DNA of 64,000 nucleotides. Source: an uncultured Acidobacteriota bacterium (GTDB taxonomy: Bacteria; Acidobacteriota; Thermoanaerobaculia; Multivoradales; JAHEKO01). The position numbers and the translations under genes are program-made. Under the pieces are notes generated by a model. The model made no database searches. It was not told the DNA's origin and saw only the letters and a program-made list of their open reading frames with translations. The stretch is from positions 1,440,001-1,504,000 of the forward strand of contig CAVQNG010000003.1 of NCBI GenBank assembly GCA_963713825.1, written 5' to 3'. Within the stretch, counting starts at the first letter, position 1, and every line of letters starts with the position of its first letter. This document shows, in pieces, positions 6,290 through 46,374 of this stretch.

Positions 6290-6527
6290 GGGGGTTGAGG
6301 CAGCCGGCGTTCCTTCGGCTGGTCTTTGAGGGCTTGGGGGTTAAGGAGTCCGTCGTACCTCCGGCCTGCCTTTGAGGCCTAGGGCAGTAGGGGCTTAGGG
6401 GCTTGGGGATACTGCAGTCTTGAGCCTTTGTTCCCCCAAGCCCTCGAAGACCGCTCGGCGAAGTCGCCGAGCGCCTCAACCTCAAGCCCTTAAGGAACGC
6501 CCGGCGGAGAGCCGGGCGCCTCACTCC
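6290..6527. repeat. Modular intergenic repeat copy 1: two forward and two inverted ~43-bp REP-like hairpin units around a G-tract
   Basis: GGGGTTGAGGC[hairpin]GGTCTTTGAGGGCTTGGGGG at 6290 is mirrored by CCCCCAAGCCCTCGAAGACC[hairpin]GCCTCAACCTC at ~6433-6483; same unit recurs at 33078 and 44739. Confidence 0.85.
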
Positions 6528-31163: not shown

Positions 31164-32486
31164 ATGTCGAATGTTCTGAGTAATTTAGCTGCGTTTATTG
31201 TCGCCCTGGGCGTGATCATCTTCGTGCACGAGGCCGGCCATCTACTGATGGCCAAGGCCTTCGGTATGCGTGTCTTGACCTTTTCTCTCGGGTTCGGAAA
31301 GCGCATCTGGGGTTTCACCCGCAACGAGACCGAGTACAAGGTCTCTCTTATCCCGCTGGGCGGTTATGTGCGGCTGGGTGGTGAGGATCCGGGTGAGGCC
31401 AGTGACGACCCCCGAGATTTCATGAACACGCCACGTTGGCAGCGGATCCTGGTCTATTTGGCCGGTCCCGCCATGAATGTGCTCCTGGCGATCCTCCTCA
31501 TTGCGGGGGTGCTGATGGTGGGGATCCAGGTGCCGACGTTGCCCGAGATCCCTCCGATCATCGGCAGCGTGGCTGCAGAATCTCCCGCCGAGGCTGCTGG
31601 ACTCCTACCTGGTGACGAAGTGCTGACGGCGAACGGCAAGGCAGCCGAGGATTGGGAAGATGTCCATTTCGCTTTCATCACGTCTCCAGAGCGGCAAGTC
31701 GATCTGACCGTCTTGCGACAGGGACAAGAGCGTCAGGTGTCCCTCGTCCCCGCCAAGGTACCCAAGTACGAGTTTGGGTATGCCGGCGCGTTTCCGACCG
31801 TCCTGCCCAGGATCGCGCAGGTCCTGGCAGACAGCCCGGCCGAGGCGGCGGGCTTCCAACCGGGAGACGAGATCCGCAGTGTGGATGGGCAGGCAATCGC
31901 GCAATGGCAGGAGTTCGTCGACTACATCGAGGCCCATGCCGACCAGGGCGTGGCGGTAGAGGTCTTGCGCGAACGGCAGCCGGCGTTGCTTCATGTCGTG
32001 CCGCGGGATGAAGGGGGCAAGGGGCGCATCGGTGTAGCGCACGGCTACTATCAGCAACTGGGTCCAGGTGCGGCACTGGTCGAGAGCGTGCGGTACAACT
32101 GGCAGATTACACGTCAGACGCTGTCGGTTCTCGGCAAGATCGTTACCGGCCAGTTGGCGGCCAAGAGCGCCCTTTCCGGTCCCATCGAGATTGCGGCTCT
32201 GAGTGGAGCGGCCGCCCGGACGGGACTCAAGCACCTGGTGCAGCTGATGGGTCTGATCAGTATCAGCATCGCGATTCTGAATCTCCTACCGATCCCGGTC
32301 CTGGACGGTGGTCAGATCACGATTCTCATGTTCGAAGGCCTGCGACGAAAAGACCTCTCGCTCCGCACCAAGGAGAGAATCAACCAGGTGGGCTTCGTCC
32401 TCATCGTGATGTTGATGGTCGTGGTGCTATATTTCGACGTGGCCAAGAACATCCCACCGGGGCTCCTCCCGGGATCGGATAGCTGA
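31164..32486 (+). CDS. rseP: RIP metalloprotease RseP
   Basis: HEAGH, IPLGGYV, AGPAMN, two PDZ domains, NLLPIPVLDGG. Confidence 0.96.
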   Translation: MSNVLSNLAAFIVALGVIIFVHEAGHLLMAKAFGMRVLTFSLGFGKRIWGFTRNETEYKVSLIPLGGYVRLGGEDPGEASDDPRDFMNTPRWQRILVYLAGPAMNVLLAILLIAGVLMVGIQVPTLPEIPPIIGSVAAESPAEAAGLLPGDEVLTANGKAAEDWEDVHFAFITSPERQVDLTVLRQGQERQVSLVPAKVPKYEFGYAGAFPTVLPRIAQVLADSPAEAAGFQPGDEIRSVDGQAIAQWQEFVDYIEAHADQGVAVEVLRERQPALLHVVPRDEGGKGRIGVAHGYYQQLGPGAALVESVRYNWQITRQTLSVLGKIVTGQLAAKSALSGPIEIAALSGAAARTGLKHLVQLMGLISISIAILNLLPIPVLDGGQITILMFEGLRRKDLSLRTKERINQVGFVLIVMLMVVVLYFDVAKNIPPGLLPGSDS

Positions 32487-32517
32487 TCTCAAGGTTCTCG
32501 AGGGAAAGGTAAGAACG

Positions 32518-33060
32518 ATGGCAGCTACGCTTGTCGTTGGTGAGGAAGCACCCAACTTCGATCTGACCTCGACAGAAGACGTGGTTCTCATGCTGTGCGA
32601 CGAGGTGCCTCGCATGGCCGTGTTGCTGTACTTCTTCGACGGCGATGGTGAGGGAGTGCGGACAGACTTGAAGAGTCTCGCCGCTGAGCAGCACAAGCTC
32701 AAGGAGCGAGGCGCTGTGATCTTGGGTGTTTCGCCGGCCAAGCTGGTCGCACTCAAGGACCTGCAACGGGAGCTACACTTGCAGTTTCCACTCCTGCGGG
32801 ACGATAGGGACTTCTCGTCTCGGTATGGCGTGGCTGTCGCTTCCGAAGGCGAATCGGCAGCGCCGGCTCTGTTCTTGGTGGGTCGGGATCAGAAGGTTCT
32901 GTGGCTGGCCAGTCCTGTGAGGTCGATCGCGAGCGTCCTGGGCGACATCGACAATGTTCTGCAGACCCTTCCCAGCTCAACAGTCAACTATCCCAAGACG
33001 GTCGTCAACCGCGTAGTGAACTGGTGGGTCAACAAGATCCGCTCTCCCCGCGCAGCCTGA
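32518..33060 (+). CDS. Peroxiredoxin/BCP-like redoxin lacking the peroxidatic motif
   Basis: GEEAPNFDL, VLLYFF, ILGVS, LQFPLLRD, PALFLV; no PxxxTxxC. Confidence 0.7.
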   Translation: MAATLVVGEEAPNFDLTSTEDVVLMLCDEVPRMAVLLYFFDGDGEGVRTDLKSLAAEQHKLKERGAVILGVSPAKLVALKDLQRELHLQFPLLRDDRDFSSRYGVAVASEGESAAPALFLVGRDQKVLWLASPVRSIASVLGDIDNVLQTLPSSTVNYPKTVVNRVVNWWVNKIRSPRAA

Positions 33061-33077
33061 ACACCACCCCCCACCCT

Positions 33078-33489
33078 GGGGTTGAAGCGCCCAGTGCATT
33101 GCGCCGGGCGGTCTTTGAGGGCCTGGGGTTGAAGCGTCCGTCGCTTGCTCCGGCCGATCCTTGAGGGTGTGGGGGCTTGAGCCCTGGATCGTTGGTGGTT
33201 CTGGGCCACGCCCGAGGCTTTCCCCCGTCGTCCTGGGCCTCCGGCTGGAGACCTTCGAACGCGGCCTCGCACCTCTGTTACTCCCTTACCCCCTCCTAAG
33301 CCCTTATTGCCTTCAGCGGTGCCGTAGGTTCGTTCGGGTGGTTCGACAGGGGGGCTCTCGACAAGCGCAGCGCAAGAGCCATCGAAGAGCACATCAGATC
33401 CGGCGCGCCGGAGAGCGCAGGTGGTGGCCCACCCGTCGCAGTCTGAGTAGCCACCGCCGTCCCCCTGCGGACCACACGGACGGGCCTCC
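33078..33489 (+). repeat. Modular intergenic repeat copy 2 (two REP-like units, C-tract, 195-nt structured module)
   Basis: Units at 33078-33167 match 6290 and 44739; 33295-33489 aligns without gaps to 44885-45079. Confidence 0.9.
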
Positions 33490-33513
33490 AATCGATAAAG
33501 GTAGTGGCGAGGA

Positions 33514-34365
33514 TCAGTCCAGGAAGGAGCGCAGCAGCTCGAGGTCGCGGCGATGGCCTTCGCTGTCATCACCCATTGGGGTCTCCAGGATCATGGGTCT
33601 ACCCTGCCAACGGGGATCGTTGACCAGGTGCTCGAAGATCTCGAGGCCGAGGTGACCCTCACCCAGGTTGGCGTGGCGGTCCCGCTTCGAGCCCAGCGGA
33701 TGCTGTGAGTCGTTGAGGTGGAAGCAGCTCGGCTCGTCGGGTCCGAAGAGATCTACGACTTGCTGGAAGAAGGCCTCATACCCCTCTTCGACGTCGAGCG
33801 GGTGGCCGGCGGCAAAGGCGTGGCAGGTATCCACGCAGAGACCGAGATTGCCTTCGCAATCGGCCCTTTCGACGATGGCTGCCAGCTGCTCCAACTGGTG
33901 GCCAATGAGGGTGCCCTGACCGGCGGTGTTCTCGAGCAGGACCCTGGTTCGGCATTCGGGTCGAGCGGCGTACACTTCGCCGAGGGACTCGGCGATGCGA
34001 TCGATCCCTTTCTCTTCGCCAGCGCCGAGGTGGGCCCCGGGATGCACCACGAGCCCGGGGATCCCCAGTCGGTGGCAGCGATCCAACTCGTCACCCAGGG
34101 TCGAACGTGAGCGCCGGAGGTTGTCCGGATTGGTCGCTGCGAGGTTCACCAGATAGGTGGAATGGGCCACGAGAGTCGAGATCTCGCTGTCGCGGAGCTC
34201 TTGCGCGAAGCGCTCCACGTCGGTCTCCGTGAGCGGCTTTCCCTCCCACTGACTGGCGTTCTTGACGAAGATCTGAATGGCATCACAGGCCAGATCGGAG
34301 CCTCTCGGGACAGCCCGGAAGACACCGCCTGCGATGGAAACATGGGCACCGAGTAGGGGCTGCAT
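33514..34365 (-). CDS. nfo: Endonuclease IV
   Basis: GAHVSIAGG, HSTYLVNL, HPG, LENTAGQG, DTCH, HLNDS, DRHANLGEG, ILETP. Confidence 0.96.
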   Translation of the reverse strand: MQPLLGAHVSIAGGVFRAVPRGSDLACDAIQIFVKNASQWEGKPLTETDVERFAQELRDSEISTLVAHSTYLVNLAATNPDNLRRSRSTLGDELDRCHRLGIPGLVVHPGAHLGAGEEKGIDRIAESLGEVYAARPECRTRVLLENTAGQGTLIGHQLEQLAAIVERADCEGNLGLCVDTCHAFAAGHPLDVEEGYEAFFQQVVDLFGPDEPSCFHLNDSQHPLGSKRDRHANLGEGHLGLEIFEHLVNDPRWQGRPMILETPMGDDSEGHRRDLELLRSFLD

Positions 34366-34455
34366 GAGAAGGCGTATCTTGACATATCTACGACAGTGGA
34401 GAGAACGGACAGCGGCCCCTTGGGTCTGTCGCTGCCGGCTGCTAGACTCCCGCCG

Positions 34456-35202
34456 ATGCTGAGGGGGGTTACTCGAGCCTTAGGTTGGCTGACCTACGTT
34501 GTCCTGCTGCTGGTGATCTTCACCTTCGCTGGCTACTTCTCGTTCAACCTGTTCGTGCGCAGCGGTGTGACGCAGGTGCCGGAGTTGGTGGGCATCCCGG
34601 AAGCTGAGATTGAAGGCCGCTTGATCGATCATGGACTGATCCTGCGCCGTCTTTGGGCTTCGGATCGATTCGATGATGAAGTGCCTGCGGGTCACGTCTT
34701 ACAGCAATCCCCTCGCTCGGCCAGCCTTGTCAAGCGCGGTGCTGCGGTCGAGGTCGTGGTATCGCTGGGCCCGGAGCGCCTGTCCGTTCCGCTGATCGAG
34801 GGCCAGGCCCTGCAGGAGGCGCAGGTCACGCTGACCGCATCCGGGCTGAGCGTTGGGCGGGTCTTCAACGTCGTCAGCCGGGGCACGACCCCGGGAACCG
34901 TCGTTCTGCAAGCGCCCTCAGCCGAGGCCCAGGCGGGCCGGGGCAGTCCTGTGGACCTCTTCCTGTCTTCGGCCAGCCGTCATGGTACTTTCGTGATGCC
35001 CGATCTCACGTACCGTAACTTCGAAAGAGTGCGCCACTTCTTCGAGCGCCGGGGGTTTCGTCTGGGAAGCGTCAAATTCGAGCCCTACGAGGGCGTTTCA
35101 CCAGGAATCGTTCTGCGCCAGTATCCTCTACCAGGGCACCAACTGCGGAGGCAGGATGTCATCTCGCTGGTGGTGACCACATTCGAGCGTGAAGGAGTCT
35201 GA
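34456..35202 (+). CDS. Membrane-anchored PASTA-domain protein (three PASTA repeats, no kinase)
   Basis: N-terminal TM then VPELVG...VLQQSP, VPLIEG...VVLQAP, MPDLT...VLRQYP repeats. Confidence 0.85.
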   Translation: MLRGVTRALGWLTYVVLLLVIFTFAGYFSFNLFVRSGVTQVPELVGIPEAEIEGRLIDHGLILRRLWASDRFDDEVPAGHVLQQSPRSASLVKRGAAVEVVVSLGPERLSVPLIEGQALQEAQVTLTASGLSVGRVFNVVSRGTTPGTVVLQAPSAEAQAGRGSPVDLFLSSASRHGTFVMPDLTYRNFERVRHFFERRGFRLGSVKFEPYEGVSPGIVLRQYPLPGHQLRRQDVISLVVTTFEREGV

Positions 35203-35869
35203 ATCGATGTTGCTTGCACCCTCCATCCTGGCGGCAGATCTGGCGGATCTCAAGACCGCTGCCGAGCAATGCAGCCGAGGTGGTGCCGACTTCATTCACG
35301 TCGATGTCATGGATGGACATTTCGTCCCGAACCTGACAATCGGCGTCCCCGTGGTCGAGGCTCTGGCAGCCTCTAGCGAGATACCTCTCGAAGTACACCT
35401 GATGGTCAGCAATCCCGAGCGCTTGCTAGAAGAGTACCTGGATGCTGGTGCGCGGTGGCTTTCGGTGCATTGGGAGGCCGCGACTCATTTGGATCGACTG
35501 ATCGGCCAGATTCAGGAGCGTGGTGCTGCCGCTGGTGTGGTCTTGAATCCTGCCACTCCGATCGAGGTTCTCGAGGCTGTGTTGCCGAGGCTGGATTTCG
35601 TCCTCCTGATGTCGGTGAATCCCGGCTTCGCCGGGCAAGCTTTCCTGCCTTACGTCCTGGAAAAGGCACGGAGATTGCGTCACCTCATCGAGCGGCGACA
35701 GGTGGGCGTGACAATCGCCATGGACGGTGGGATCGGTATCGACAACATCGGGCAAGTCGTGGCTTCTGGAGTGGATTATTGTGTCGCAGGATCGGCTGTT
35801 TTCGCGAGTGAGGATCCTGTAGCGAGCATGCAAGAGCTCAGGCGGCAGGCAGAATCGGAGCGGGCATGA
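35189..35869 (+). CDS. rpe: Ribulose-phosphate 3-epimerase
   Basis: APSILAAD, HVDVMDGHFVPN, MSVNPGF, DGGI. Confidence 0.97.
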   Translation: MKESESMLLAPSILAADLADLKTAAEQCSRGGADFIHVDVMDGHFVPNLTIGVPVVEALAASSEIPLEVHLMVSNPERLLEEYLDAGARWLSVHWEAATHLDRLIGQIQERGAAAGVVLNPATPIEVLEAVLPRLDFVLLMSVNPGFAGQAFLPYVLEKARRLRHLIERRQVGVTIAMDGGIGIDNIGQVVASGVDYCVAGSAVFASEDPVASMQELRRQAESERA

Positions 35870-36681
35870 AGATATCGAGCGCTCATCGGCACTTTCGGCA
35901 CTCCCTGTCGCTGACAGTCGCGTTGCTGCTGGTCCTGACTTTGTCGGTCGCGGGCTGCAAGAGCTCCGGCAAATCCGGCATCGACAACGACCCGATACTC
36001 CAGTTGGCTGCTGATGAATCGTTGCAGCGGGGCCGAGAGTTGATGGAGGCGGGCAAATACGGGCCGGCATCTGAATATCTGGCGCATGCCTTCGAAGTAG
36101 CCCCCAACTCGGCGAGTGGTCGTGAGGCGCTGCTGCTGGCAGCCGACGCGATGTACCTCGACGGCGGTGTAGCCAACTACATCAAGGCCCACGCCAAGTA
36201 CACGGATTTCCAGAATCGATTTCCGACCAGCGATCGCAGCCACTACGTTCAGTTCCAGATTGCCAACTGCCTGGAGAAGCAGACACGCAAGCCCGATCGT
36301 GATCAGACTCCGACCAGGGATGCCCTGTATGCCTACGAAGAGCTCGTGCGTCTCTATCCAACGAGCGAACATGTCGATGAAGGCCAGCTGAAGATCGTCG
36401 AACTTCGGCAAGACATGGCGGAGCACGAGTTCATCGTGGGGCGCTACAACATGACTCGAAAGCTCTGGCCCGCTGCTGTGCACCGGTTCGACGGCCTGCT
36501 GGAGCAGTATCCGGACTACCTGGAGACCGACAAGATCCTGTTCTACAAGGGTTCGGCCCAGCGGCGCTGGAAGAAGTGTGATGAAGCCGATCAGACTTTC
36601 GCCGAGCTGCGGTCCGAGTACCCGGAGAGCAAGTACATTAAACAGGTGCCGGACAAGAGGATCAAGGGATGCGACGAATGA
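35866..36681 (+). CDS. bamD: Outer-membrane assembly lipoprotein BamD
   Basis: Lipobox VAGC, TPR helices, PDRDQTPT, LYPTSE, AEHEFIVGRY. Confidence 0.85.
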   Translation: MKISSAHRHFRHSLSLTVALLLVLTLSVAGCKSSGKSGIDNDPILQLAADESLQRGRELMEAGKYGPASEYLAHAFEVAPNSASGREALLLAADAMYLDGGVANYIKAHAKYTDFQNRFPTSDRSHYVQFQIANCLEKQTRKPDRDQTPTRDALYAYEELVRLYPTSEHVDEGQLKIVELRQDMAEHEFIVGRYNMTRKLWPAAVHRFDGLLEQYPDYLETDKILFYKGSAQRRWKKCDEADQTFAELRSEYPESKYIKQVPDKRIKGCDE

Positions 36682-37499
36682 GCCGTGGAACCAGCTGGTG
36701 GGTGATGTCGAGTGTCGTTTTCTTGGGCGCCTGTTCGTCATTCAGTGGTACCCAACCCGACCCCGCTGTGCAAAGCGACCTGGAGCAGATGAAGCAGCGG
36801 ATTCTCGATCTCCAGGAGAAGGCCGCCATGGCCGAGGTAGAAATGGAGCGCTTGCGGCAGCAGGTAGCCAGATTGGAAGCTCGACCGCAAGTCGTGCAGC
36901 CCGTCGTGGAGGTGGTCGAGCCCGAGCTGGTCTTCGAACGGCCAGCACCTGAGCCCGGATGGCAGGGCGGAAATACCCAGCAGGCGGGTGTGTTGGAGGA
37001 ATCGGATCTGCCGCTCGTTCAGGAGTCGCCAGCCTTACAAGAGCCCACGTCGGGGTCCACTGCAGCGACCCCCGAGAATGCTGCCGGGGCGAGCTCGAGT
37101 TCTACAGCCACCGAGCCGGTCGTTCCTGCGGCTCAGGCACTCTACGACCGGGGGTACACGCTCTATCACCAGGGCCGATATCTAGACGCTGAAGCGAGCT
37201 TTCAGCGTTTCCTGCAGGCTTATCCGACGACCGATCTGTCGGACAATGCGCAGTTCTGGATCGGCGAGAGTCGCTACGCACGAGGCGATATATCAGGCGC
37301 CTTGTCGGCCTTTCGCGAAACACTCCAGCTGTATCCTGGAGGCAACAAGGTTCCTGACGCCCTGGTGAAGGAAGGCGACTGTCTAGCTGGTATGGGCGAT
37401 CGGGACGGTGCCCGGCAGAGCTACGAGGAGGTCGTGCGGCGATTTCCTGGATCAGCGGCTGCTGTCATGGCCAGCGAGCGCGTCGCTGATCTCCAGTAG
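36678..37499 (+). CDS. cpoB: Tol-Pal-associated CpoB/YbgF-like lipoprotein
   Basis: Lipobox LGAC, coiled coil, C-terminal TPR FLQAYP...DNAQFWIGE...NKVPDAL. Confidence 0.8.
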   Translation: MSRGTSWWVMSSVVFLGACSSFSGTQPDPAVQSDLEQMKQRILDLQEKAAMAEVEMERLRQQVARLEARPQVVQPVVEVVEPELVFERPAPEPGWQGGNTQQAGVLEESDLPLVQESPALQEPTSGSTAATPENAAGASSSSTATEPVVPAAQALYDRGYTLYHQGRYLDAEASFQRFLQAYPTTDLSDNAQFWIGESRYARGDISGALSAFRETLQLYPGGNKVPDALVKEGDCLAGMGDRDGARQSYEEVVRRFPGSAAAVMASERVADLQ

Positions 37500-37609
37500 G
37501 TAGGGTTGAGGGTCTTCCCTGGGTTTGGCTTTGCAGAACGTTGTTCCAGTGGAGGATCTGGAGTCGAGGAGCCTCCAAGCAAGAGCAGGGGTGCTTGTGG
37601 ATGGGTTCC

Positions 37610-37638
37610 TTGACAGGCCCCAAAATAGTGTGTACGTT
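37610..37638 (+). promoter_or_regulatory. sigma70-type promoter of LysM gene
   Basis: TTGACA-N17-TACGTT ~75 nt upstream of ATG 37712. Confidence 0.55.
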
Positions 37639-37711
37639 TCGTTTTGGATCGTAACGGACTCATTCTAGTTGCTTTACGCGTTTGCAAGAGGAATTCTAAG
37701 GAGGTCCAGGT

Positions 37712-38866
37712 ATGTCGCCAAGCCGCCTTATTTGCCTGGCTCTGTCGGTGCTGTTGATGACCACGGCCGCCGGCCTTGTCGCGGATGAGACACCACCCAA
37801 GCCTCTTCATATGGTCGGGGATCATTGGACGGCTTGGAACCCGCCAACCTCGATACCAGAGGGCACAGAGGTCTACATTGTGCAGCGTGGAGACACGCTC
37901 TGGGATTTGGCCACACAGTTCTATGGGGATCCCTATCTCTGGCCACAGCTTTGGGAACGTAACAGCTACATTCTGGACGCCCATTGGATCTACCCAGGTG
38001 ACCCATTGGTCGTCGGTGTCGAAGTCACACCCGTCGGAGACGTTCTTTCGCCGGACGACGCCGATACCGAAGACATGGCGTCGCAAGATGACGCTAGTGG
38101 CCTAGACACCCTGGCCGCGCCTCCGATGCAGCTCGGCAGTGAATCCGACATCTACTGCAGCGGATTTATCGGCCCCATCGGCCAGGAGTTCGATTTCTCG
38201 ATAATCGGGTCGGAGTACTCGGGATCGTCCTACGATGACCCCCTGAAGGCGGGGTACGGCTCTCGGGAAGGCTACATCATGGACCTGAGTCTCGGTGACA
38301 TCGTCTACATCAGTGGTGGCCGGGAGGCTGGTCTGATGCCGGGTTCGCTTTTCACGGTTGTCGAGTCGAAGGGCGTCGTCAAGCACCCCGTTGGCAAAGC
38401 GACGCTTGGCGAGCACTACCGCTACAATGGCCGGGTTCGGATCCTGTCGACGCAAGACACTACTGCCATCGCGGAGATAGCGCACTCTTGTCATCCGATT
38501 TCCGTCGGCGCTGTCCTGATGCCCTTCACGCCCGAGCCAGTTCCACTCGCTCGGTACTCGGGGATGGTCGGTCTCAATGATCCGGTCACCGAGGAGGCTC
38601 TAGTAGACGCTCCGATCATCGTCTTGTCCGATGCCGGCATTCTCTCACTGGGCCAGGGACACGTTGTCTATATCGACCGTGGTTCCGATGAGGTTGCACC
38701 AGGGGACCTGTTCACGATCTACCGTCCGACGCCGTCGGAGATTCCGCCATTGATGATTGGCGAATTGGCTGTTCTGTCGGTCGGCGAGACTACCTCGGTA
38801 GCCAAGATCCTGGACTCGCGTCAGGTGGTCCACGTCGGTGATCGGCTCTCTCCGAGGGTCGACTGA
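37712..38866 (+). CDS. Secreted LysM peptidoglycan-binding protein
   Basis: Signal peptide; YIVQRGDTLWDLA..FYGDPYLWPQLWERN...HWIYPGD. Confidence 0.85.
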   Translation: MSPSRLICLALSVLLMTTAAGLVADETPPKPLHMVGDHWTAWNPPTSIPEGTEVYIVQRGDTLWDLATQFYGDPYLWPQLWERNSYILDAHWIYPGDPLVVGVEVTPVGDVLSPDDADTEDMASQDDASGLDTLAAPPMQLGSESDIYCSGFIGPIGQEFDFSIIGSEYSGSSYDDPLKAGYGSREGYIMDLSLGDIVYISGGREAGLMPGSLFTVVESKGVVKHPVGKATLGEHYRYNGRVRILSTQDTTAIAEIAHSCHPISVGAVLMPFTPEPVPLARYSGMVGLNDPVTEEALVDAPIIVLSDAGILSLGQGHVVYIDRGSDEVAPGDLFTIYRPTPSEIPPLMIGELAVLSVGETTSVAKILDSRQVVHVGDRLSPRVD

Positions 38867-38906
38867 GTCGCGCCGGAATCCGGCGATCATCGAGCGAAAA
38901 CACGTC

Positions 38907-38934
38907 TTGATCTGACCCCGTGCTGTGGTATTCT
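38907..38934 (+). promoter_or_regulatory. sigma70-type promoter of Fis-like gene
   Basis: TTGATC-N16-TATTCT with TG extension. Confidence 0.45.
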
Positions 38935-38963
38935 GAGCGCTCCTCAGAAGACACGGGGTTGGT

Positions 38964-39236
38964 GTGGTGACGAAGCAGAATCTAAACGGACGACTCTTTC
39001 AGCTTGTCGATGAACTGGTGCGTCGAGGTGTAACCCTCGACCAGGCCAAGCGTGAATTCGAGAAGCAGTACATCGTCGCCATGCTGCGCACGAACGAGGG
39101 CAACCTGACTCGAACGGCAAAAACCATGGGTGTCCACCGGAATACCTTGCGCAACAAGGTCTGCGATCTGGGTATCGTCGCCGGCGATTACGTAGCCCCC
39201 GCGTCGAGCCGTCGGCGTCGCTCGCAGCGACACTGA
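38964..39236 (+). CDS. Fis-family HTH protein
   Basis: FEKQYI..ML..NEGNLTRTAKTMGVHRNTLRNK (HTH_8 pattern). Confidence 0.85.
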   Translation: MVTKQNLNGRLFQLVDELVRRGVTLDQAKREFEKQYIVAMLRTNEGNLTRTAKTMGVHRNTLRNKVCDLGIVAGDYVAPASSRRRRSQRH

Positions 39237-39258
39237 AATTCAAGTCCACACGTGCATC

Positions 39259-39292
39259 AACCCTCGAGCCGAAGGATTCGGTTCGGGTTTCT
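39259..39292 (+). terminator. Putative intrinsic terminator after Fis-like gene
   Basis: CGAGCCGAA-GGA-TTCGGTTCG hairpin followed by GGTTTCT (short U tract). Confidence 0.5.
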
Positions 39293-39424
39293 GTCTGCCA
39301 ACATGGCGGTTCGGAGACGCCAAACTGCCACCCTCCGAGGCGATGTCGAGGCGAGCTGAGACCGAATCCAAGACCCTCGAAAAGCCTGTAAATCATTGCG
39401 CATTGTAGGTGTGACTCGATCCCA

Positions 39425-39440
39425 TGGCACACAGTTTGCT
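39425..39440 (+). promoter_or_regulatory. sigma54 (-24/-12) promoter
   Basis: TGGCAC-ACAGT-TTGCT matches TGGCAC-N5-TTGCW exactly, in an intergenic gap. Confidence 0.8.
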
Positions 39441-39592
39441 AAACTGGGTGTCGAGGGCACACATAGACGCCCGGGCGGCGGCATCGAGGGGAGGAACCCG
39501 ATCGACCGCCGGACTCTCCAAGAACTAACTAGGCCAGATTCTCGTAGAACCCGAATCACTCTGGTTTCAGAGTCATTGCATTGCAGACGCCC

Positions 39593-40351
39593 ATGTCCAT
39601 CGAAGCAATAGAGCCCGCAGCGAAGAAGCTGTTCAAGCGCAGTCGCACCATGCGGGTGGTGATCGCCACGGCTCTGTTTCTGGTCGTCTCCTTTAATTCG
39701 CCGCCGACGCTGCCATCCGTGCCTGACTCCAGACCGGAGCCCCCGAGCCCTGAAGAGATCTACCTGCTGGAAGAGGTGGCCGAGTGGGTGATGGGCAAAC
39801 CGTTGACGGAAGAGTTCAACGCCTTCAGCGAGGCGGATGTCGTCGCGGCGGTCCGTTCGCGGCCGCGAAGCTTCGAGCTGTTCAGAAAGTACGGTGAGGA
39901 AGCCTCACGATGGGATCTGGTGCAGAGCCTGCCCTACGGCGACCTCATCCGATCTACAGCGCAGCGCTATCAAGTTGACAGCCTCCTACTCGCCTCGATG
40001 GTCGAGGCCGAGTCGGGCTTCAATCCGTACGCCATGTCCCCTCAGGGAGCGCTGGGGCTGATGCAGATCATGCCCGAGACCGCCAACCCCTATTCGGTCG
40101 ACGACCTGCTCGAGCCAGCCGTCAACATCGATCTCGGTGCCCGCTATCTCGCCAGGTTGCTCAGGGAGTTCGATGGAGATGTGACTCTCGCCCTGGCCGG
40201 CTACAACTCCGGTCCCGGCAACGTCCGACGGTTCGGTGGTATGCCGCCCTTTCGGGAGACGCGAGACTACGTGGATCGTGTGCTGAGCCGCTACGTCGAT
40301 CACCACCGAGACATCTGGCAGTCATCCGGCGACCAGGACTTCCTGTTCTAA
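39593..40351 (+). CDS. SLT-domain lytic transglycosylase
   Basis: AESGFNPYAMSPQGALGLMQIMP, ALAGYNSGPG, PPFRETRDYV. Confidence 0.92.
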   Translation: MSIEAIEPAAKKLFKRSRTMRVVIATALFLVVSFNSPPTLPSVPDSRPEPPSPEEIYLLEEVAEWVMGKPLTEEFNAFSEADVVAAVRSRPRSFELFRKYGEEASRWDLVQSLPYGDLIRSTAQRYQVDSLLLASMVEAESGFNPYAMSPQGALGLMQIMPETANPYSVDDLLEPAVNIDLGARYLARLLREFDGDVTLALAGYNSGPGNVRRFGGMPPFRETRDYVDRVLSRYVDHHRDIWQSSGDQDFLF

Positions 40352-40401
40352 CTGGCAGTAGCTAGAAGGACTCTGTTGGAGGGACCCCCAAGGGGATCGT
40401 T

Positions 40402-40593
40402 CTACGGGGTTTTGGTTTCCGAGTTGTCGGTTGCGGCGTCTTCCTGATCCGCCGAGTCGCTATTGCTTTTCAGGCCACTCTTGAAGTTGCGTATCCCCTC
40501 ACCGAGGCCTTTGCCGAGCTGCGGCAGCTTCGAGGCTCCGAAGATGATGATGACGATCAGCAAGATGACGAGCAGCTCTTGGAATCCTGGCAT
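40402..40593 (-). CDS. tatA: Twin-arginine translocase TatA/E
   Basis: [33 protein letters not shown]. Confidence 0.93.
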
Positions 40594-40726
40594 CAGGCTC
40601 TTTCTCCTCTGAGAATGCGGCCCGTAACCTGTTCGGGCGCTCGAAGTCTAGCAGATTCTATTTCCCGGACCCCTGGGCGTTTTTGGTCGGTTCGGCCCAA
40701 TCGGGGCCTGTGCCAGCAATGTCCTG

Positions 40727-41704
40727 TCAGGCGCCCAGAATGGGTCGCCAGAGCTCTTCAAGGGTTTCGGCAATGCCTTGTCCCTCGGGGACCCTCTGCA
40801 AGTGGTACAGCGCCCTTCCCAGAGTCGGAGGAATGAGGGGAAGCCGGGCTGGATTGCCCCGTCGGGCAAAGGCCTCGAAGGTCCCGACGACCTTGATCGT
40901 CCTCTGGACGGCCGCACGGTGGTAGGAGAGTCTCTCCGATTCATCGGAGAGGCAGGAGGCCAGCAGGGCGTTCTCCGTCTCGGGCGGTGGGAACAGGCTA
41001 TCGTTGAGAAGGGAGGCGAGATCGTAGAAAGACGGTCCGGCTCGTAGGTCCTGGTGGTCGAGAACACCCACCTTGCATGACGGGCCCATTGGGACCAGGT
41101 TGCGGGCCATGAAATCCCGATGACAGACAACCTGCGGCTCATTGGACAATTGCTCGCAGACTTCTGTCAGGGCCTGCCAAAGCAGCCGCGATTCGTCGGG
41201 GCTGCCAGTCAACTGCCGGGGTGTCAGGTAGATCTCCCAGGTCTGCCGAAGCTCAGCGATCAGAAGATCTCGATCGAGAGCTGGATTCAGGTCGAGGGCC
41301 GTCTGCAGCGGCAGACTCCGGATGCGGCGCCAAAGAGAGATCGACTGTTCGAAGTAGGGAACGAGAGAGTACCAATCCTCTCCTCGTCGATCGTACAGCG
41401 TCGAAGCTCCGAGATCTTCGAGCAGCATGAAGCCTACGGCGCAGTTCGCCCCCAGAATGGCCGGCACTGGGACGGCCAGGTCTTCGAGGAGCTTGGTGGT
41501 GATCTCGAAGCGAGTGCAGGTTTCTTCGAGATCGGATGGGTAGTAGGCCAGGATGGCCGTCTTTCCACCGCCAAGATCGAGGCGAAAGTACCGACGAGGC
41601 GACACATCGCCGACTAGATGCTCGGCTCCGATCACCTCGTATCCGAGCGAGGTGAGCCAGGTATTCAAGAGCGTCGATTTGGGAAGCTCTGTTGACGGAT
41701 CCAT
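40727..41704 (-). CDS. APH-family phosphotransferase, AmgK-like
   Basis: GDVSPRRYFR, LLEDLG, HRDFMARNL, LDHQD, YDLASLL. Confidence 0.8.
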   Translation of the reverse strand: MDPSTELPKSTLLNTWLTSLGYEVIGAEHLVGDVSPRRYFRLDLGGGKTAILAYYPSDLEETCTRFEITTKLLEDLAVPVPAILGANCAVGFMLLEDLGASTLYDRRGEDWYSLVPYFEQSISLWRRIRSLPLQTALDLNPALDRDLLIAELRQTWEIYLTPRQLTGSPDESRLLWQALTEVCEQLSNEPQVVCHRDFMARNLVPMGPSCKVGVLDHQDLRAGPSFYDLASLLNDSLFPPPETENALLASCLSDESERLSYHRAAVQRTIKVVGTFEAFARRGNPARLPLIPPTLGRALYHLQRVPEGQGIAETLEELWRPILGA

Positions 41705-41828
41705 TGCTAGTTGCTGTTTCCGGCAGTGAGGAGTCGGAGTGCGGGTGTCAGACTGCGGATTCACGGCTGGTTGCCACGGCCCCGAATGCGACTCGCGCCA
41801 GACGGTAGCATACTCGGTGGTGACCTGA

Positions 41829-41857
41829 TTGACAGGGGTAGGGGGGCAGTGGATAAT
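41829..41857 (+). promoter_or_regulatory. Near-consensus sigma70 promoter
   Basis: TTGACA-N17-GATAAT upstream of the 97-aa ORF. Confidence 0.6.
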
Positions 41858-41910
41858 CCAGCCAGGTTTCGCAGGCGAATCATCGATGTTGATGGACTGG
41901 AGTTAGCAGA

Positions 41911-42204
41911 GTGGACGCCAAGCTTCGAAGACTGCTGCAGGAACTCAAGGGCGCCATTTCCAAGACGCTCACCGAGTCTCCCGATGTCGAGCGTTCTATG
42001 CAGCGCATTCGAAAAGAGGGTTGGTCGGTCTACCTGGTCGTCGATCGCAAGAGGGAAGACGAGACTCCCGAGGGGATCGAGTTGACCGCTGAAAGCGGAT
42101 CGACGCCAGATGTCATCTTTCGCATCGACAGACAGGACCTGGCGTTTCTGAGATCGATCGGCATCGACCCCACCCGAAGGCTGCGCCGCCGCCGACAGTC
42201 ATGA
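41911..42204 (+). CDS. Small hypothetical protein
   Basis: Own promoter, GGAG RBS, fills the gap between two minus-strand genes; amphipathic helices and DLAFLRSIGI motif. Confidence 0.7.
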   Translation: MDAKLRRLLQELKGAISKTLTESPDVERSMQRIRKEGWSVYLVVDRKREDETPEGIELTAESGSTPDVIFRIDRQDLAFLRSIGIDPTRRLRRRRQS

Positions 42205-42205
42205 G

Positions 42206-42907
42206 CTAGGACCCTGTGGAAGGGTTTCTCCAAACGAGGGTCCAGTTCCGCCCGGCGCGCGGGCCCTCCCGCCGATAGCTCCACAGCCGTTCGACCTCGC
42301 AAGAGGTACACAGCGGCAGGCTCGTAACCTTTCGAATGCCGGCGGCTGTCAGCTGGTACCTGGCGGCCTGCAGCAGATCCAGATGAAGGGCTCCGGAGGG
42401 GCGACGGACCACGACCTCGGTCGAGCTCGAAGCGGCGACTTTATCAGCTACATCTTGACCAACCTCGTAGCAACAGACGCCAATTCCAGGGCCGATCCAA
42501 GCCGCCATTGTCTCAGGCGAATCGGTCATGTGATGCAAGGTGTGGCGCAGAATGCCACCTTCCAGGCCCCGCCATCCGGCGTGAACAGCTGCGCTCTGAC
42601 GTCGCCCGCTGAGAATAACGGGCAGACAGTCGGCTGTTGCCACTCCCATGGCAAGGTCGGCCTGGTCTGTGAAGAGGGCATCAGCCTCGCCACAAAGCCC
42701 TTCAGAGGCCTGAACTGCGGTAGACGAGTGGACCTGGCGTAGCCGGGCAACACGGTCTGGAGATCCTGCCAGGAGGGATAAGACACTCTTCAACTGCGTC
42801 TCGGGGCCGCGGCCAACGAACCGAACCTGGGTGTGAGCGTCCTGGTCTCGCCATACCCAGTGACCACCCGTGGTTCTGTTTGCTTGCAAGTCTTTCTGAG
42901 TTCTCAT
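42206..42907 (-). CDS. pgeF: PgeF/YfiH-family protein (start approximate)
   Basis: QVHS, ADAL, TADCLPV, HAGWRG, IGPGIGVCCYEV, WSYRRE. Confidence 0.9.
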   Translation of the reverse strand: MRTQKDLQANRTTGGHWVWRDQDAHTQVRFVGRGPETQLKSVLSLLAGSPDRVARLRQVHSSTAVQASEGLCGEADALFTDQADLAMGVATADCLPVILSGRRQSAAVHAGWRGLEGGILRHTLHHMTDSPETMAAWIGPGIGVCCYEVGQDVADKVAASSSTEVVVRRPSGALHLDLLQAARYQLTAAGIRKVTSLPLCTSCEVERLWSYRREGPRAGRNWTLVWRNPSTGS

Positions 42908-43091
42908 CACAGGAATGCCTCGGGAGCCGTTCAGCTCGAAGGGCATCAGCCGATTCGGATGACGACTATAGAAGATTTCATCGAAGTGCTGGGATACCTT
43001 GAGTAAACTTGGCACGACCAGGTCGACGTTGATCGGGACCTGGAGCAGACTACAAGGAGCCAGGACGGCAGGCCTACAACGGTCGTCCAGG

Positions 43092-43844
43092 ATGAGAGTG
43101 ATTCAGTTTCTCCATGTGGGTAAGTCTTTCTCGGCTGGCCGGATTGCGCTGGACGACGTGAGCTTCCATCTCGAGAGGGGGGAGTTCGCCTTTCTGAGCG
43201 GCGCCAGTGGGGCAGGCAAGACCACCTTGCTGAAACTGATCTATCGCGAGATCGAGCCCAGCGCGGGCCAGATTCTGGTCAACGGCCGGAACGTCGCCTC
43301 CATCCCGCGCTCCAAGATTCCGTTTCTCCGTCGGACGATTGGTGTGGTCTTCCAGAATTTCCGGCTCATTTCTCGCAAAACAGTGCTCGAGAACGTCAGC
43401 TATCTGCCCAGGATCCTCGGCATGGGTCAGCAGGAAAGGAAGCGCCTGGCCTACAACACCCTGCGTCGCGTTGGGCTGGCTCACCGCATGAGTGCCTTTC
43501 CGAACGAGCTGTCGGGCGGAGAACAACAGCGCGTGACCATCGCGCGAGCTTTGATCAATCGTCCAGAGATCCTCATTGCAGACGAGCCGACCGGCAATCT
43601 CGACCCGGAGCTGTCTTGGGAGATTCTCAGGCTCTTTCTGGAGATCAACGGTAAGGGAACCACGGTTCTACTGGCCACTCATGAGCATAGCTACGTGGAT
43701 GCTCTGGGTGGTCGCTCTCTAGCGCTGGATCGCGGTCGCCTCGTTGCCGACGACCATGTGGAAGGGCATGTAGGGGACCTCGAGTCGGACTCCATCGAGG
43801 AAGCGGAAGCTCTGTCACAGCCTCCAAGAGAGAGGACGGTCTGA
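43092..43844 (+). CDS. ftsE: Cell division ATP-binding protein FtsE
   Basis: GASGAGKT, IPFLRRTIGVVFQ, LSGGEQQR, ADEPTGNLD. Confidence 0.93.
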   Translation: MRVIQFLHVGKSFSAGRIALDDVSFHLERGEFAFLSGASGAGKTTLLKLIYREIEPSAGQILVNGRNVASIPRSKIPFLRRTIGVVFQNFRLISRKTVLENVSYLPRILGMGQQERKRLAYNTLRRVGLAHRMSAFPNELSGGEQQRVTIARALINRPEILIADEPTGNLDPELSWEILRLFLEINGKGTTVLLATHEHSYVDALGGRSLALDRGRLVADDHVEGHVGDLESDSIEEAEALSQPPRERTV

Positions 43845-44740
43845 TGCTGTTCAGGATCTTTGGCTATTTCCTCGCCGAGGCCGCAGTGAGCCTGCGGCGC
43901 GGTTGGAAAGTCAGCCTGGTGGCCATCGTGATCATCGCCATGAGCCTCTTCATCGGGGGTACTTTCCTGCTGCTTACCTCCAACCTGTCGAGAGTGGTCG
44001 AAAGCTGGCGCGGAGAGGCTCGGATCGTCATCTATCTGAGCGGCGATGAAGTGGCGAGACGAGACTCCGAAGTTCTCCAGATCGCGTCCGCCCCTTCCTG
44101 GGTTTCGGGAGTCGAAGAGATCTCCGCGGCAGAGGCACGCTCGAGATTCGAAACGACGTTTCCCAGCGTCAGAGAGCTGTTCAAAGACTGGGAGGAGGAG
44201 CCGTTGCCACCGTCGTTGGAGGTTGCGATCGAGATCGAAGGCGTTGGGGAAGACGAGCTCGACGATTGGCTGATATCACTACGGTCGGATCCGGCTGTAG
44301 TGATGGTCGACGACGATCGCGATTGGCTCCGACAGTTGGAGGCGCTGATCGCCATCCTGACCGGTCTGGGCGCCGTCATTGGCCTGGTCCTGCTGACCGC
44401 GGCGATTTTCACGATTGCTAGCGTCATACGCCTCACCGCTTATCTGTACCGTGAAGAGATCGAGGTCATGCGCCTGGTTGGGGCGACCGAGCTCTACATT
44501 CGGGGGCCCTTTTATGTCGAAGGGGTGATTCAGGGTTTGCTCGGCGGCCTGCTTGCCATGGCGGGATTGTACGGCGGTTACCTGATCCTGAATCCCCAAG
44601 CCAGTACGACATTTCTCGGCAACGTCCTGGTGGACAGGTTCCTCTCCCCGGAAGCACTCCTGTCGCTTCTTCTTCTCGGCAGTCTGGCGGGCCTCTTTGG
44701 CGCGGTGCTGTCTCTCCGACGCGAAGAGCTGGGCCAATGA
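43844..44740 (+). CDS. ftsX: Cell division permease FtsX
   Basis: PLPPSLEV, IRLT...REEIEVMRLVGAT..YIRGPF..EG; coupled to ftsE. Confidence 0.92.
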   Translation: MLFRIFGYFLAEAAVSLRRGWKVSLVAIVIIAMSLFIGGTFLLLTSNLSRVVESWRGEARIVIYLSGDEVARRDSEVLQIASAPSWVSGVEEISAAEARSRFETTFPSVRELFKDWEEEPLPPSLEVAIEIEGVGEDELDDWLISLRSDPAVVMVDDDRDWLRQLEALIAILTGLGAVIGLVLLTAAIFTIASVIRLTAYLYREEIEVMRLVGATELYIRGPFYVEGVIQGLLGGLLAMAGLYGGYLILNPQASTTFLGNVLVDRFLSPEALLSLLLLGSLAGLFGAVLSLRREELGQ

Positions 44741-45079
44741 GGGTTGAGGCAACTGGGCGTTCCTTCCAGCTGGCCTTTGAGGGCTTGAGGGTTGAATCGT
44801 CCGTCGCTTGCTCCGGCCGACCTTTGACGTAGTGGGAGCCACCTCCCATTCCTCTGGAGCCCTAGGCCCTTACGCCCCCACTGCCCTAAGCCCCTATTGC
44901 CTTCAATGGTGCCAGAGGTCCGTTCGGGTGGTCCGACAGGGGGCGCCTCGTCGAGCGCAGCGCAAGGACCATCGAAGGGCACAGTCGATGAGGCGCGATG
45001 ACGAGACGAGGTGGCGGCCCGTCCGTTGGAGTCTGAGTAGCCGCCGCCGTCCCCCTGCGGGCCACCCGGATGGACCTCC
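44739..45079 (+). repeat. Modular intergenic repeat copy 3 (two REP-like units, C-tract, 195-nt structured module)
   Basis: Homologous to 33078-33489 and, for the units, to 6290-6377. Confidence 0.9.
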
Positions 45080-45155
45080 TGTAGGGCCCGCTCAACAGGG
45101 GAAGATCTCATCGAAGCGAAGCTCTTGCCCGACCTCGGCATGCGTTTGGAGCAAC

Positions 45156-45181
45156 AAAAAAGGGGCCGAAGTGGCCCCTTT
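45156..45181 (-). terminator. Intrinsic terminator of the exbB-tonB-TPR cluster (possibly bidirectional)
   Basis: AAAAAAGGGGCC-GAAGT-GGCCCCTTT; gives a U6 tail on the minus strand. Confidence 0.8.
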
Positions 45182-45204
45182 CGAGTACTGCGGATCGAGA
45201 AGCG

Positions 45205-46374
45205 TCAGCCCTGAGGCGGTGGACCACCCGGGAGCTGCTTGAGCTCTTCTTTGAGCCGCTCTTCCTCTTCGGCGAGGGCGCGAATCGTTTCGTTCTCTTG
45301 CTCGATTTGTTGGTTGTACTCGTCGGTCTTCCGATTCTCTTCCACCCGAGCCATCGAGGCGCTGTCGCCAGCATTCTTGTAGGCAGTGACGGCCGCATCG
45401 TAGCTCTTCTGCTTCTCGTACACGAAGCCGAGCTGCTTCCAGACCGTTACCTTGTCGGCGCTCGAAGCGGCTTTGCCCAGAGCTTGTTTGAGCGTGCTCT
45501 CCGCGGTCTGGAACTGCCCGAGCTGGGTGAGAGCCTGGCCCTGGTAGTAGAGTGGCAGCCAGTCGTTGGGATTCTTGCCGGCCGCCTGTTTCAAAGTGGA
45601 CATAGCCCCGTCGTAGTCCTTACCACCGAGTTGGGCTCCAGCCAACAGCATCAAATTGTCGTAGCTGCCGTCGGCCGAGACGACTTTCTGTGCAGCGGTG
45701 GCAGCCTTATTGTAGGCACTGGTCTTGGCATCGCCACGGCTCGTGCGGCCCTGTCGCAGGAGAGCCTGTGCATAGGTCTTCTGCTTGTTGACGTCGTTTG
45801 GATCCAGCTGAACGGCTTTGGCCAGCGCCGTCGAAGCAGTGGCGCCATCTCCAGCCCTCAAGGCGGCAGCACCGTATTGGAACTGGATATTCGCATCATT
45901 GGGCTTCGTCCTGGCGGCTCGCGCCAGCTGGTCGAGTGCACTGTCGGAGTCGCCGGACTTTTCCAGGGCGAGGGCCATCATCTGATGCACGGCAGTCTGC
46001 TGAGCTGCGGGTAGCGACGAAGAGTCGATCCTGCCGAGCAGGCCCGCCGCGTCGTTATACTTGCCAGCGCTCAAATAGACCTTGCCGAGAGCTAGCTGCA
46101 CCCCGACGTTGCCAGGCTCGAGTTCCAGAGCCTTCTGCAGGTGGGACATCGCCTCCTGGTTGCGATTCAACTTGGCCAGGGTCTGGCCCAGCATGTAGTG
46201 TCCCTGAAAGACGTCGGGTCGCTCGTCGACGAATGTCTGGAATTGTTTGGCGGCCTCGGTAAAGTCTCCCGCTTTGAAGGCTGCGACCCCTTCATCCCAC
46301 CCTGCCTCGACCACCGCGACGGTTCCCAGTAAGAGAACAGCAAGCAAGTAACTGATGATCTGTCTTTTCTTCAT
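45205..46374 (-). CDS. Secreted multi-TPR protein
   Basis: ATG 46374 after GGAGGAG; signal peptide MKKRQIISYLLAVLLLG; many TPR repeats; C-terminal coiled coil. Confidence 0.88.
   Translation of the reverse strand: MKKRQIISYLLAVLLLGTVAVVEAGWDEGVAAFKAGDFTEAAKQFQTFVDERPDVFQGHYMLGQTLAKLNRNQEAMSHLQKALELEPGNVGVQLALGKVYLSAGKYNDAAGLLGRIDSSSLPAAQQTAVHQMMALALEKSGDSDSALDQLARAARTKPNDANIQFQYGAAALRAGDGATASTALAKAVQLDPNDVNKQKTYAQALLRQGRTSRGDAKTSAYNKAATAAQKVVSADGSYDNLMLLAGAQLGGKDYDGAMSTLKQAAGKNPNDWLPLYYQGQALTQLGQFQTAESTLKQALGKAASSADKVTVWKQLGFVYEKQKSYDAAVTAYKNAGDSASMARVEENRKTDEYNQQIEQENETIRALAEEEERLKEELKQLPGGPPPQG

Follow-up and report, generated by a model that had tools for sequence, protein, structure and literature searches.

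To our knowledge, the known small structured repeats (REP, REPIN, ERIC and bcr1) are almost all simple hairpins, and their mode of spread is mostly unknown. PATEs and omega-RNA ends derived from IS200/IS605 are non-autonomous, possess strand-specific folded ends and a short target motif and cause no duplication, features in which they resemble the element described here. A REP unit is described as a short palindrome of 20-40 bp, one end of which bears a GTAG or CGTC tag that is left unpaired (PMC3733652), and the replicative unit of REPINs as a doublet of inverted REPs that forms one hairpin (PMC3116915). Intergenic repeats of 130-155 bp, the positions of which vary between strains, are reported for the Bacillus cereus group (bcr1) and for enterobacteria (ERIC/IRU); in the same account, bcr1 is transcribed and its cruciform-like structure is kept at the RNA level by compensatory changes, and repeats of the bcr1/ERIC type possess TIRs and have direct repeats on their flanks, of 5 bp in bcr1 and of TA in the ERIC type (PMC3184786).

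The element described here was identified on a window of 64,000 nucleotides (the whole stretch of DNA analysed) from an uncultured bacterium of the Thermoanaerobaculia (Acidobacteriota), in which a sequence-only reading had drawn attention to a 195-nt module occurring twice. The two stretches (33295-33489 and 44885-45079) align without gaps and with 37 mismatches over 195 positions (81.0% identity), as that reading had counted; approximately 20,000 random offsets in the window averaged 26.9% and did not exceed 40.5%. The closing stem that it had proposed, 33326-33353 with 33461-33487, was recovered as 27 pairs with one bulged A (33346), of which 26 are standard pairs in the first copy (copy A) and all 27 in the second (copy B). 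Six pairs of this stem differ between the copies, five by exchange of Watson-Crick and G-U pairs and one by the change of G-A to G-C, and the compensatory change described for an inner helix (GGTGGTGGC/GCCACCGCC versus GGTGGCGGC/GCCGCCGCC) is real (columns 126-174 of alignment A2, see below). Folding energies were -84.9 kcal/mol for copy A (z -2.6) and -105.9 kcal/mol for copy B (z -6.2), with none of 200 dinucleotide shuffles being as good in either case. Upstream genes were also as previously noted, encoding an AhpC/TSA protein at copy A and an FtsX-domain protein at copy B, with a convergent gene facing both sites. The conserved core, hereafter the Y element, covers approximately 180 bases and its parts are listed in Table 1.

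Table 1. The two Y-element copies of the window, their structural parts and the features surrounding them (positions are those of the window).
Feature	Position	Strand	Remarks
AhpC/TSA (redoxin) gene	32518..33060	+	upstream of copy A
65-nt GC-rich hairpin repeat (separate family)	33105..33185	+	upstream of copy A
Degenerate octamer tract (GCCCCTAN-like)	33283..33308	+	directly 5' of copy A
Copy A of the Y element	33309..33494	+	full extent of the covariance/HMM model
Copy A, P1 5' arm (closing stem)	33325..33353	+	pairs with 33461-33488
Copy A, arm P2	33354..33418	+	33354-33368 with 33403-33418; distal part variable; contains the conserved words AGCGC and GGCGCG
Copy A, arm P3	33420..33458	+	33420-33428 with 33450-33458; loop has the conserved AGTCTGAGTAG word
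Copy A, P1 3' arm	33461..33488	+	partner of 33325-33353
FtsX-domain gene	43844..44740	+	upstream of copy B
65-nt hairpin repeat (same family)	44772..44839	+	upstream of copy B
Octamer tract	44866..44898	+	directly 5' of copy B; similar tract at the module-less site of genome G005
Copy B of the Y element	44899..45084	+	top-scoring copy of the genome, 211 bits
Copy B, overall fold	44915..45078	+	P1 44915-44943 with 45051-45078, around P2 and P3
Copy B, P2 and P3	P2 44944-44958 with 44993-45008; P3 45010-45018 with 45040-45048	+	
Terminator-like hairpin of the convergent TPR gene	45158..45182	-	downstream of copy B; kept at the empty sites of genomes G001, G005 and G003

The description of the module as occurring twice holds for the window only. 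In the genome to which the window belongs (G000; a 5.42-Mb assembly of 38 contigs with approximately 61% G+C), 80 full and 24 partial copies were identified using a profile HMM. The BLAST comparison of the module with its own assembly, which had been suggested as a check, returned 104 hits, all of them short and non-coding, with 74 spanning at least 150 nt. Full copies were found on contigs C3 (40), C5 (16), C25 (9), C4 (7) and C14 (4), with one each on C13, C16, C26 and C27 and none on C1 (414 kb). Pairwise identity among copies averaged 81%. Nearest neighbours were mostly approximately 90% identical and, segmental duplicates aside, the closest pair was 97% identical, indicating that recent jumps are rare, which counts against the family being mobile.

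Contigs C1, C34, C11, C2 and C10 are all without Y elements and are slightly lower in G+C. Given the density on other large contigs, approximately 7.7 copies would be expected on C1 (Poisson p approximately 5e-4), and these contigs could represent a binning error, a replicon of their own or DNA acquired recently. Identical or 98%-identical copies were found at C14:15387, C16:16465 and C13:33116 and at C27:16777, C26:16771 and C3:978854, the latter set, for which flanks were compared, having these in common also. Both sets are segmental or contig-end assembly duplicates rather than fresh transpositions. Many contigs of genomes G001, G002 and G005 begin or stop within a copy; in practice, Y elements fragment the assemblies of sediment MAGs.

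Alignment A2 consisted of 70 copies (30 loci first returned and 40 fetched), with four of the 74 copies left out, two situated at contig ends and two on C14. The structure of the Y element was found to be a three-way junction of 50 pairs, 28 in the closing stem P1, 13 in arm P2 and nine in arm P3, with P2 including tandem G-A/A-G pairs that alternate with Watson-Crick pairs. RNAalifold paired column 51 with column 180, while covariation instead pairs it with column 119 (C-G 39, U-A 23, G-C 6). Copy A belongs to a minor subfamily, represented by 6 of 70 copies, which has G-C at this pair and in which the base helix of P2 is shifted by two positions. Standard pairs make up 91.2% of the cells of A2, and both sides have changed at 13 pairs (59 cells). 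None of 500 shuffles reached the observed values on four of five measures, with five doing so on the fifth, and slid controls were 38-52% paired. This covariation, seen in the window's own genome and again in other genera (see below), shows the fold to be real and under selection, as had been proposed from the two copies of the window.

The argument that the + strand is the folded one, made earlier on the basis of G-U pairs in a single stem, was found to be valid for the whole family. A2 contains 365 G-U cells against 40 A-C cells, which identifies the + strand as that which folds, and predicted stability favours this strand in 70 of 80 copies under RNA parameters and in 77 of 80 under DNA parameters. 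Conservation was higher at paired columns (0.92) than at unpaired columns (0.84). Polymorphisms of the interior were linked in 129 of 666 column pairs at p <=0.01, indicating that the Y element has subfamilies; U-G/U-A toggles in P1 were mostly unlinked to the subfamily markers. In four copies P1 is lengthened by approximately eight pairs, running into inverted copies of the 5' flank.

Comparison by BLAST showed that the module is shared by all five other species of the window's genus and by none of 35 genomes of other genera. The covariance model R1, built on A2, reaches beyond BLAST and matched 27 of 45 genomes and 12 of 20 genera of the family. Within a sample of the order, matches were obtained in 19 of 121 genomes and 16 of 58 genera, distributed by family as 10/16 (f1), 3/8 (f3), 1/15 (f7), 1/15 (f8) and 3/10 (f10), with no match in the other seven families sampled; family and order tallies include G000 and an unpublished genome, G006, in which no match was found. 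Among complete genomes, the element was detected in G016, G019, G023, G143 and G146, while G015, G021, G031 and G032 gave none. Among the 24 matches from other genera (14 loci), both sides change at 48 of the 50 pairs and 90.8% of cells are paired (shuffles, 62%; slid controls, 37-47%), although the alignment was fitted to the structure of the model and these pair counts thus lean toward that structure. The junction is constant across genera, as are the words AGCGC and GGCGCG (P2), AGG (junction), CCGU (after P3) and AGUC (P3 loop), and the termini of the element vary freely.

At 6 of the 14 loci in other genera, a second copy was found head to head within 150 nt of the first. These pairs (L192, L193, L196, L199, L201 and L202; - then +) are 23 to 147 nt apart, with a spacing of only 23-24 nt in L192 and L193, and the partners clearly differ in sequence and score, representing different subfamilies. 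This suggests nested insertion at a common target. No head-to-head pairs were found among the 80 full copies of G000. The top-scoring copy from outside the family (L206; G146 C1:2995320-2997497) is situated in approximately 3 kb without a recognisable gene, across which a 725-aa open frame with no Pfam match extends.

As the sequence-only reading had anticipated, the Y element corresponds to no known RNA family: a covariance-model comparison of the whole window with Rfam 15 gave no match at gathering score, and over 33050-33550 no match was found at E values up to 10, including to hammerhead, twister, HEARO and Acido-Lenti-1. Neither was it described in the literature on Thermoanaerobaculia repeats, among the papers listed and judged by title or abstract. 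The Y element represents a real, uncatalogued family of Y-shaped structured repeats that occurs across an order of the Acidobacteriota.

Gene context was derived from our own crude calls, a set of 4455 ORFs that takes up 89% of the genome. The 74 BLAST copies comprised 34 located between convergent genes, 29 between genes of the same direction, nine between divergent genes and two at contig ends, with 20 of the 74 overlapping a called ORF, in most cases a short one. At same-direction sites, the orientation of the copy agrees with that of the genes in 13 cases and opposes it in 16. The Y element thus favours gene ends and has no preferred direction relative to transcription, and these latter counts dispose of the proposal that it is a 3'UTR element. 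Regarding replication, 38 copies were found in each orientation relative to GC skew (76 copies, five large contigs). In G000, GC skew turns from negative to positive near 800 kb of C3, which is likely to be the replication origin or terminus.

No target duplication of at least 5 bp was identified at any boundary pair, the best candidate applying to 4 of 64 copies, and comparison of filled with empty sites gave no clean insertion boundaries, the intergenic DNA being too diverged and too mosaic. In the window's genus, the 5' side of the Y element is formed by degenerate repetitions of the octamer GCCCCTAN. Stringent octamer arrays number 103 genome-wide, of which 41 immediately precede a module on its 5' side and share its orientation, and 57 are alone. 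Octamer arrays also occupy sites without a Y element. Arrays are found, for example, at approximately 6385-6401 of the window (- strand) and at G000 C3:598184-598374.

The 65-nt hairpin repeat, also noted at 33075-33128, is preceded by a GGGTTGARGCG-like word and has at least 42 matches in the genome (40 of 98 candidates were scored); it is found in either orientation to the Y element and often in the same intergenic regions. Some near-identical pairs of Y-element copies have only the module in common. One pair shares a composite of approximately 380 nt, in which the module is combined with another hairpin, with octamers and with a 3' tail, which indicates that the module is one tile of a repeat mosaic. 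A second and different structured repeat family was observed in the same intergenic hot spots of sister species (L101, L107 and the site downstream of ftsX in G003, L121/L129), sharing a 3' tail motif with the Y element.

Comparison of the same sites between species revealed marked turnover. Downstream of ftsX, where G000 has the module on the + strand, G001 possesses an 88-nt spacer with no module beside the same genes, G005 the hairpin repeat and octamers with no module, and G003 a structured element of another kind that points the other way. At the redoxin site, the module is on the + strand in G000 and G003 and on the - strand in G004, and two further sites are empty in G000 and filled in G003 and G004. 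Where copies do share a site, their identities (approximately 80-87%) are near the mean of random pairs, and the same-site copy of G000 ranks only 12th to 66th of 80 in similarity to its sister-species counterpart (six of seven comparisons scored).

Interrupted copies were also found, the inserted sequences being an IS481-type IS, an IS110 and REP-like hairpins, the last of these in the P3 loop. The REP-like hairpin is perfect, carries a GTAG tag and accounts for five long variants in G000 and many in G005; hairpin and IS insertions were located at G000 C3:766596-767936 (L032), L080, L100 and at approximately 22.5 kb of C26 (L131). The split hit at C3:766456/767937 was considered as a possible autonomous parent and was rejected, as it consists of the IS481-type IS (a 343-aa ORF with rve and LZ_Tnp_IS481 domains) within a REP-like hairpin that is itself inside a copy. 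This arrangement recalls IS elements that target the loops of REPs. Sites that are empty, filled or flipped, same-site copies that are not nearest relatives, broken copies and a lack of orientation bias constitute the behaviour of mobile DNA.

The distribution of mutations over the fold was investigated by counting transitions at paired columns in 64 clean rows of A2, six disrupted rows having been dropped. Transitions private to one copy kept the pair in 10 cases and broke it in 13, whereas shared transitions kept it in 147 and broke it in nine (Fisher p 1.7e-8). The rate of private change was similar at paired columns (0.54 per column) and at unpaired ones (0.61). These results, the counts of which are small, suggest that selection acts on lineages that are still being copied and that settled copies drift, although weak purifying selection on every copy would also fit. 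Selection on the lineages still being copied would be due to the fold serving as a substrate recognised by a trans-acting enzyme.

The proposal that copies might abut a RAYT/TnpA(Y1), reverse transcriptase or TnpB gene found no support. RVT_1 (PF00078) and the TnpB zinc-ribbon domain (PF07282) had no matches in G000, a genome that is 96.4% complete, and none of its Y1 genes is flanked by the element. Four Y1_Tnp genes were identified (311-363 aa), with proteins scoring 49-59 bits against the NCBIfam model REP_Tyr_transpos, under its cut-off of 80; their flanks contain no repeats, save that one gene has a 71-nt stretch matched once at another place in the assembly. Across the family, 37 of 45 genomes have Y1 genes, genomes without an element match being among them, elements are present with no Y1 hit in G017, G045 and G059, and in the complete genomes G016, G019, G023 and G053 Y1 hits and elements were not adjacent. 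A RAYT link to the Y element is therefore unsupported by flanks, phyletic pattern and adjacency alike. The idea of an IS110 bridge RNA was likewise rejected, as the three IS110 genes have unrelated flanks, one of them lying beside a broken copy. In the low-copy genomes G146 and G044, no mobile-element enzyme was found among the 10 nearest proteins at six of nine fetched loci, these being ordinary enzymes and one protein without a family; the scan covered these 10.

The stretch was found to be present in 20 sediment-metagenome runs, two of which are RNA libraries with small shares. Runs X19 and X20 (RNA) and X1 and X6 (DNA) were compared over 32300-46300; all consist of contigs and so give no starts, ends, strand or level. 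Contigs of the RNA libraries cover scattered parts of genes and give no usable coverage of the module. One contig of X20, in which 226 unrelated letters precede the match, agrees from 44914 onwards; it derives from a copy at some other locus or in another organism and is no proof of transcription. The greater depth of the module in the DNA runs is due to other copies, and a joint of 33388 to 44992 in X6 is a repeat-bridging contig.

The reading favoured here, with a probability of roughly 0.55, is that the Y element is a non-autonomous mobile element spreading by way of a folded single-stranded + strand intermediate. Among the alternatives listed in the sequence-only reading (a structured ncRNA, a 3'UTR element, a ribozyme-like RNA or a non-autonomous mobile element), the last is the best fit, given the turnover at the same sites; that reading was borne out in part, as to fold and strand and probably as to the mobile element, and mistaken as to the two-copy status and the 3'UTR. 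In the mechanism proposed, a gene-less element of approximately 180 nt would spread within genomes of the Thermoanaerobaculia, its single-stranded + strand folding into the 28-pair P1 with the arms P2 and P3 and fixed junction and loop nucleotides. The folded + strand would then be recognised as a substrate by an enzyme acting in trans. In the window's genus, copies land directly 3' of short octamer arrays, with no target-site duplication. Single-stranded DNA is ranked above RNA as the intermediate only since no reverse transcriptase was found in a genome 96% complete. The only candidate enzymes seen are the four distant RAYT-like Y1 (HUH) proteins, none being linked to the element. In addition, transposition of single-stranded DNA in the manner of IS200/IS605 predicts a lagging-strand bias, and its absence (38 versus 38) is a point against the reading favoured here. 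Should the fold be a Y1/HUH substrate, it would widen the range of what these enzymes move.

A fixed junction and loops together with freely covarying stems, as seen here across genera and families of the order, are also the classic signature of a functional RNA, which counts against mobility. Many or all copies would in that case be transcribed, the Y-shaped RNA acting in protein binding or as a ribozyme and dispersal being a by-product; if so, the family would be a new class of large structured RNA. The ratio of nine G-U cells to one A-C cell and the better conservation of paired columns are in agreement with this, and the P1 toggles could be repeated neutral change in copies under selection. 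However, no promoter-like site was found at either window copy and no terminator after the element, and the narrow spacing of the head-to-head copies in L192 and L193 leaves no room for promoters. Orientation to genes is random, private changes show no bias toward keeping pairs, many copies are broken and copies at the same site are replaced or flipped between species, so that a functional RNA family is regarded as unlikely, if still a serious contender. The invariant three-way junction may alternatively be active in its own spread, as a catalytic or guide RNA or as single-stranded DNA that places an unrecognised enzyme at octamer arrays. The Y element would then be a new self-propagating structured nucleic acid, amounting to a new insertion system directed by RNA or ssDNA instead of a substrate passively moved by transposases of a known family; this is a doubtful proposition and something of a long shot.

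An old spread, with copies kept because they are useful to the host as structural elements of intergenic DNA or mRNA ends in the manner proposed for REP/BIME and ERIC, would account for the location of 34 of the 72 classifiable sites between convergent genes with only nine between divergent ones. It would likewise account for the mosaics with the hairpin repeat, octamer arrays and second structured family, and for the position of copy B between the stop codon of ftsX and a shared terminator hairpin. The element might bind a protein, stabilise mRNA or mark it for processing, or insulate convergent genes from each other. Such a use is difficult to reconcile with a fold that is strand-specific yet randomly oriented to neighbouring genes, with the empty site of G001 beside the same genes and with fast turnover between species, and is considered improbable. 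A classical cut-and-paste MITE, derived from an IS with a DDE transposase and with a closing stem read as TIRs in duplex DNA, is highly improbable. The arms of P1 do form a 28-bp inverted repeat, which the four lengthened copies extend by approximately eight pairs into inverted 5' flank, but the absence of target-site duplications (the best candidate applying to 4 of 64 copies) and the lack of an IS with the same ends in the genome, the 1.34-kb interruption being an unrelated IS481-type IS with ends of its own, do not agree with this. Furthermore, arms that covary around a fixed interior are the opposite of what is seen in transposase-bound TIRs, and an asymmetry of G-U over A-C would be meaningless for duplex DNA.

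Returning to a mobile element with a folded single-stranded intermediate, the Y element can be placed beside known systems as follows. It differs from the IS200/IS605-derived elements in that G000 possesses no TnpB and no IS200-type TnpA sharing Y sequence, in the even distribution of its copies over the two replication orientations (38 to 38) and in that no Rfam match to HEARO or IS605-orfB was found. From retron msr-msd and other RNAs copied by reverse transcriptase it differs by the lack of such an enzyme (no match to PF00078 in the 96.4% complete genome). With bcr1 and ERIC, as these are characterised in PMC3184786, it shares an intergenic location and positions that are not conserved and, with bcr1, compensatory changes; it differs from them in having no duplication, in being branched and in having a core that is conserved across the order.

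Similarity to REPINs and REP-BIMEs with their RAYTs, as presented in PMC3116915 and PMC3733652, extends to being non-coding, extragenic and present in many copies, with a fold predicted for single-stranded DNA or RNA. It also includes a location mostly in convergent or same-direction gaps (34 and 29, versus nine divergent, of 72), the absence of target duplication, mosaics with other repeats, RAYT-like genes in the genome and, in other genera, copies that are often head to head. Compared to palindromes of 20-40 bp, however, the Y element measures approximately 180 nt, is built around a three-way junction and has fixed loops, and the base of its stem bears neither a GTAG nor a CGTC tag. GTAG is found in it only inside the P3 loop word, and on the folded strand the octamers of its 5' flank contain the complement of GTAG, a geometry that differs from that of REP. 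The RAYT-like genes are not flanked by the Y element and their presence does not track it; there are no doublets in G000, and head-to-head neighbours elsewhere belong to different subfamilies. The family combines a branched fold with a fixed junction, selection on one strand and turnover of sites, with no recognisable transposase, reverse transcriptase or TnpB. By analogy, the Y element would appear to work most like REPINs and the RNA-structured repeats bcr1 and ERIC, while being a member of none of these.
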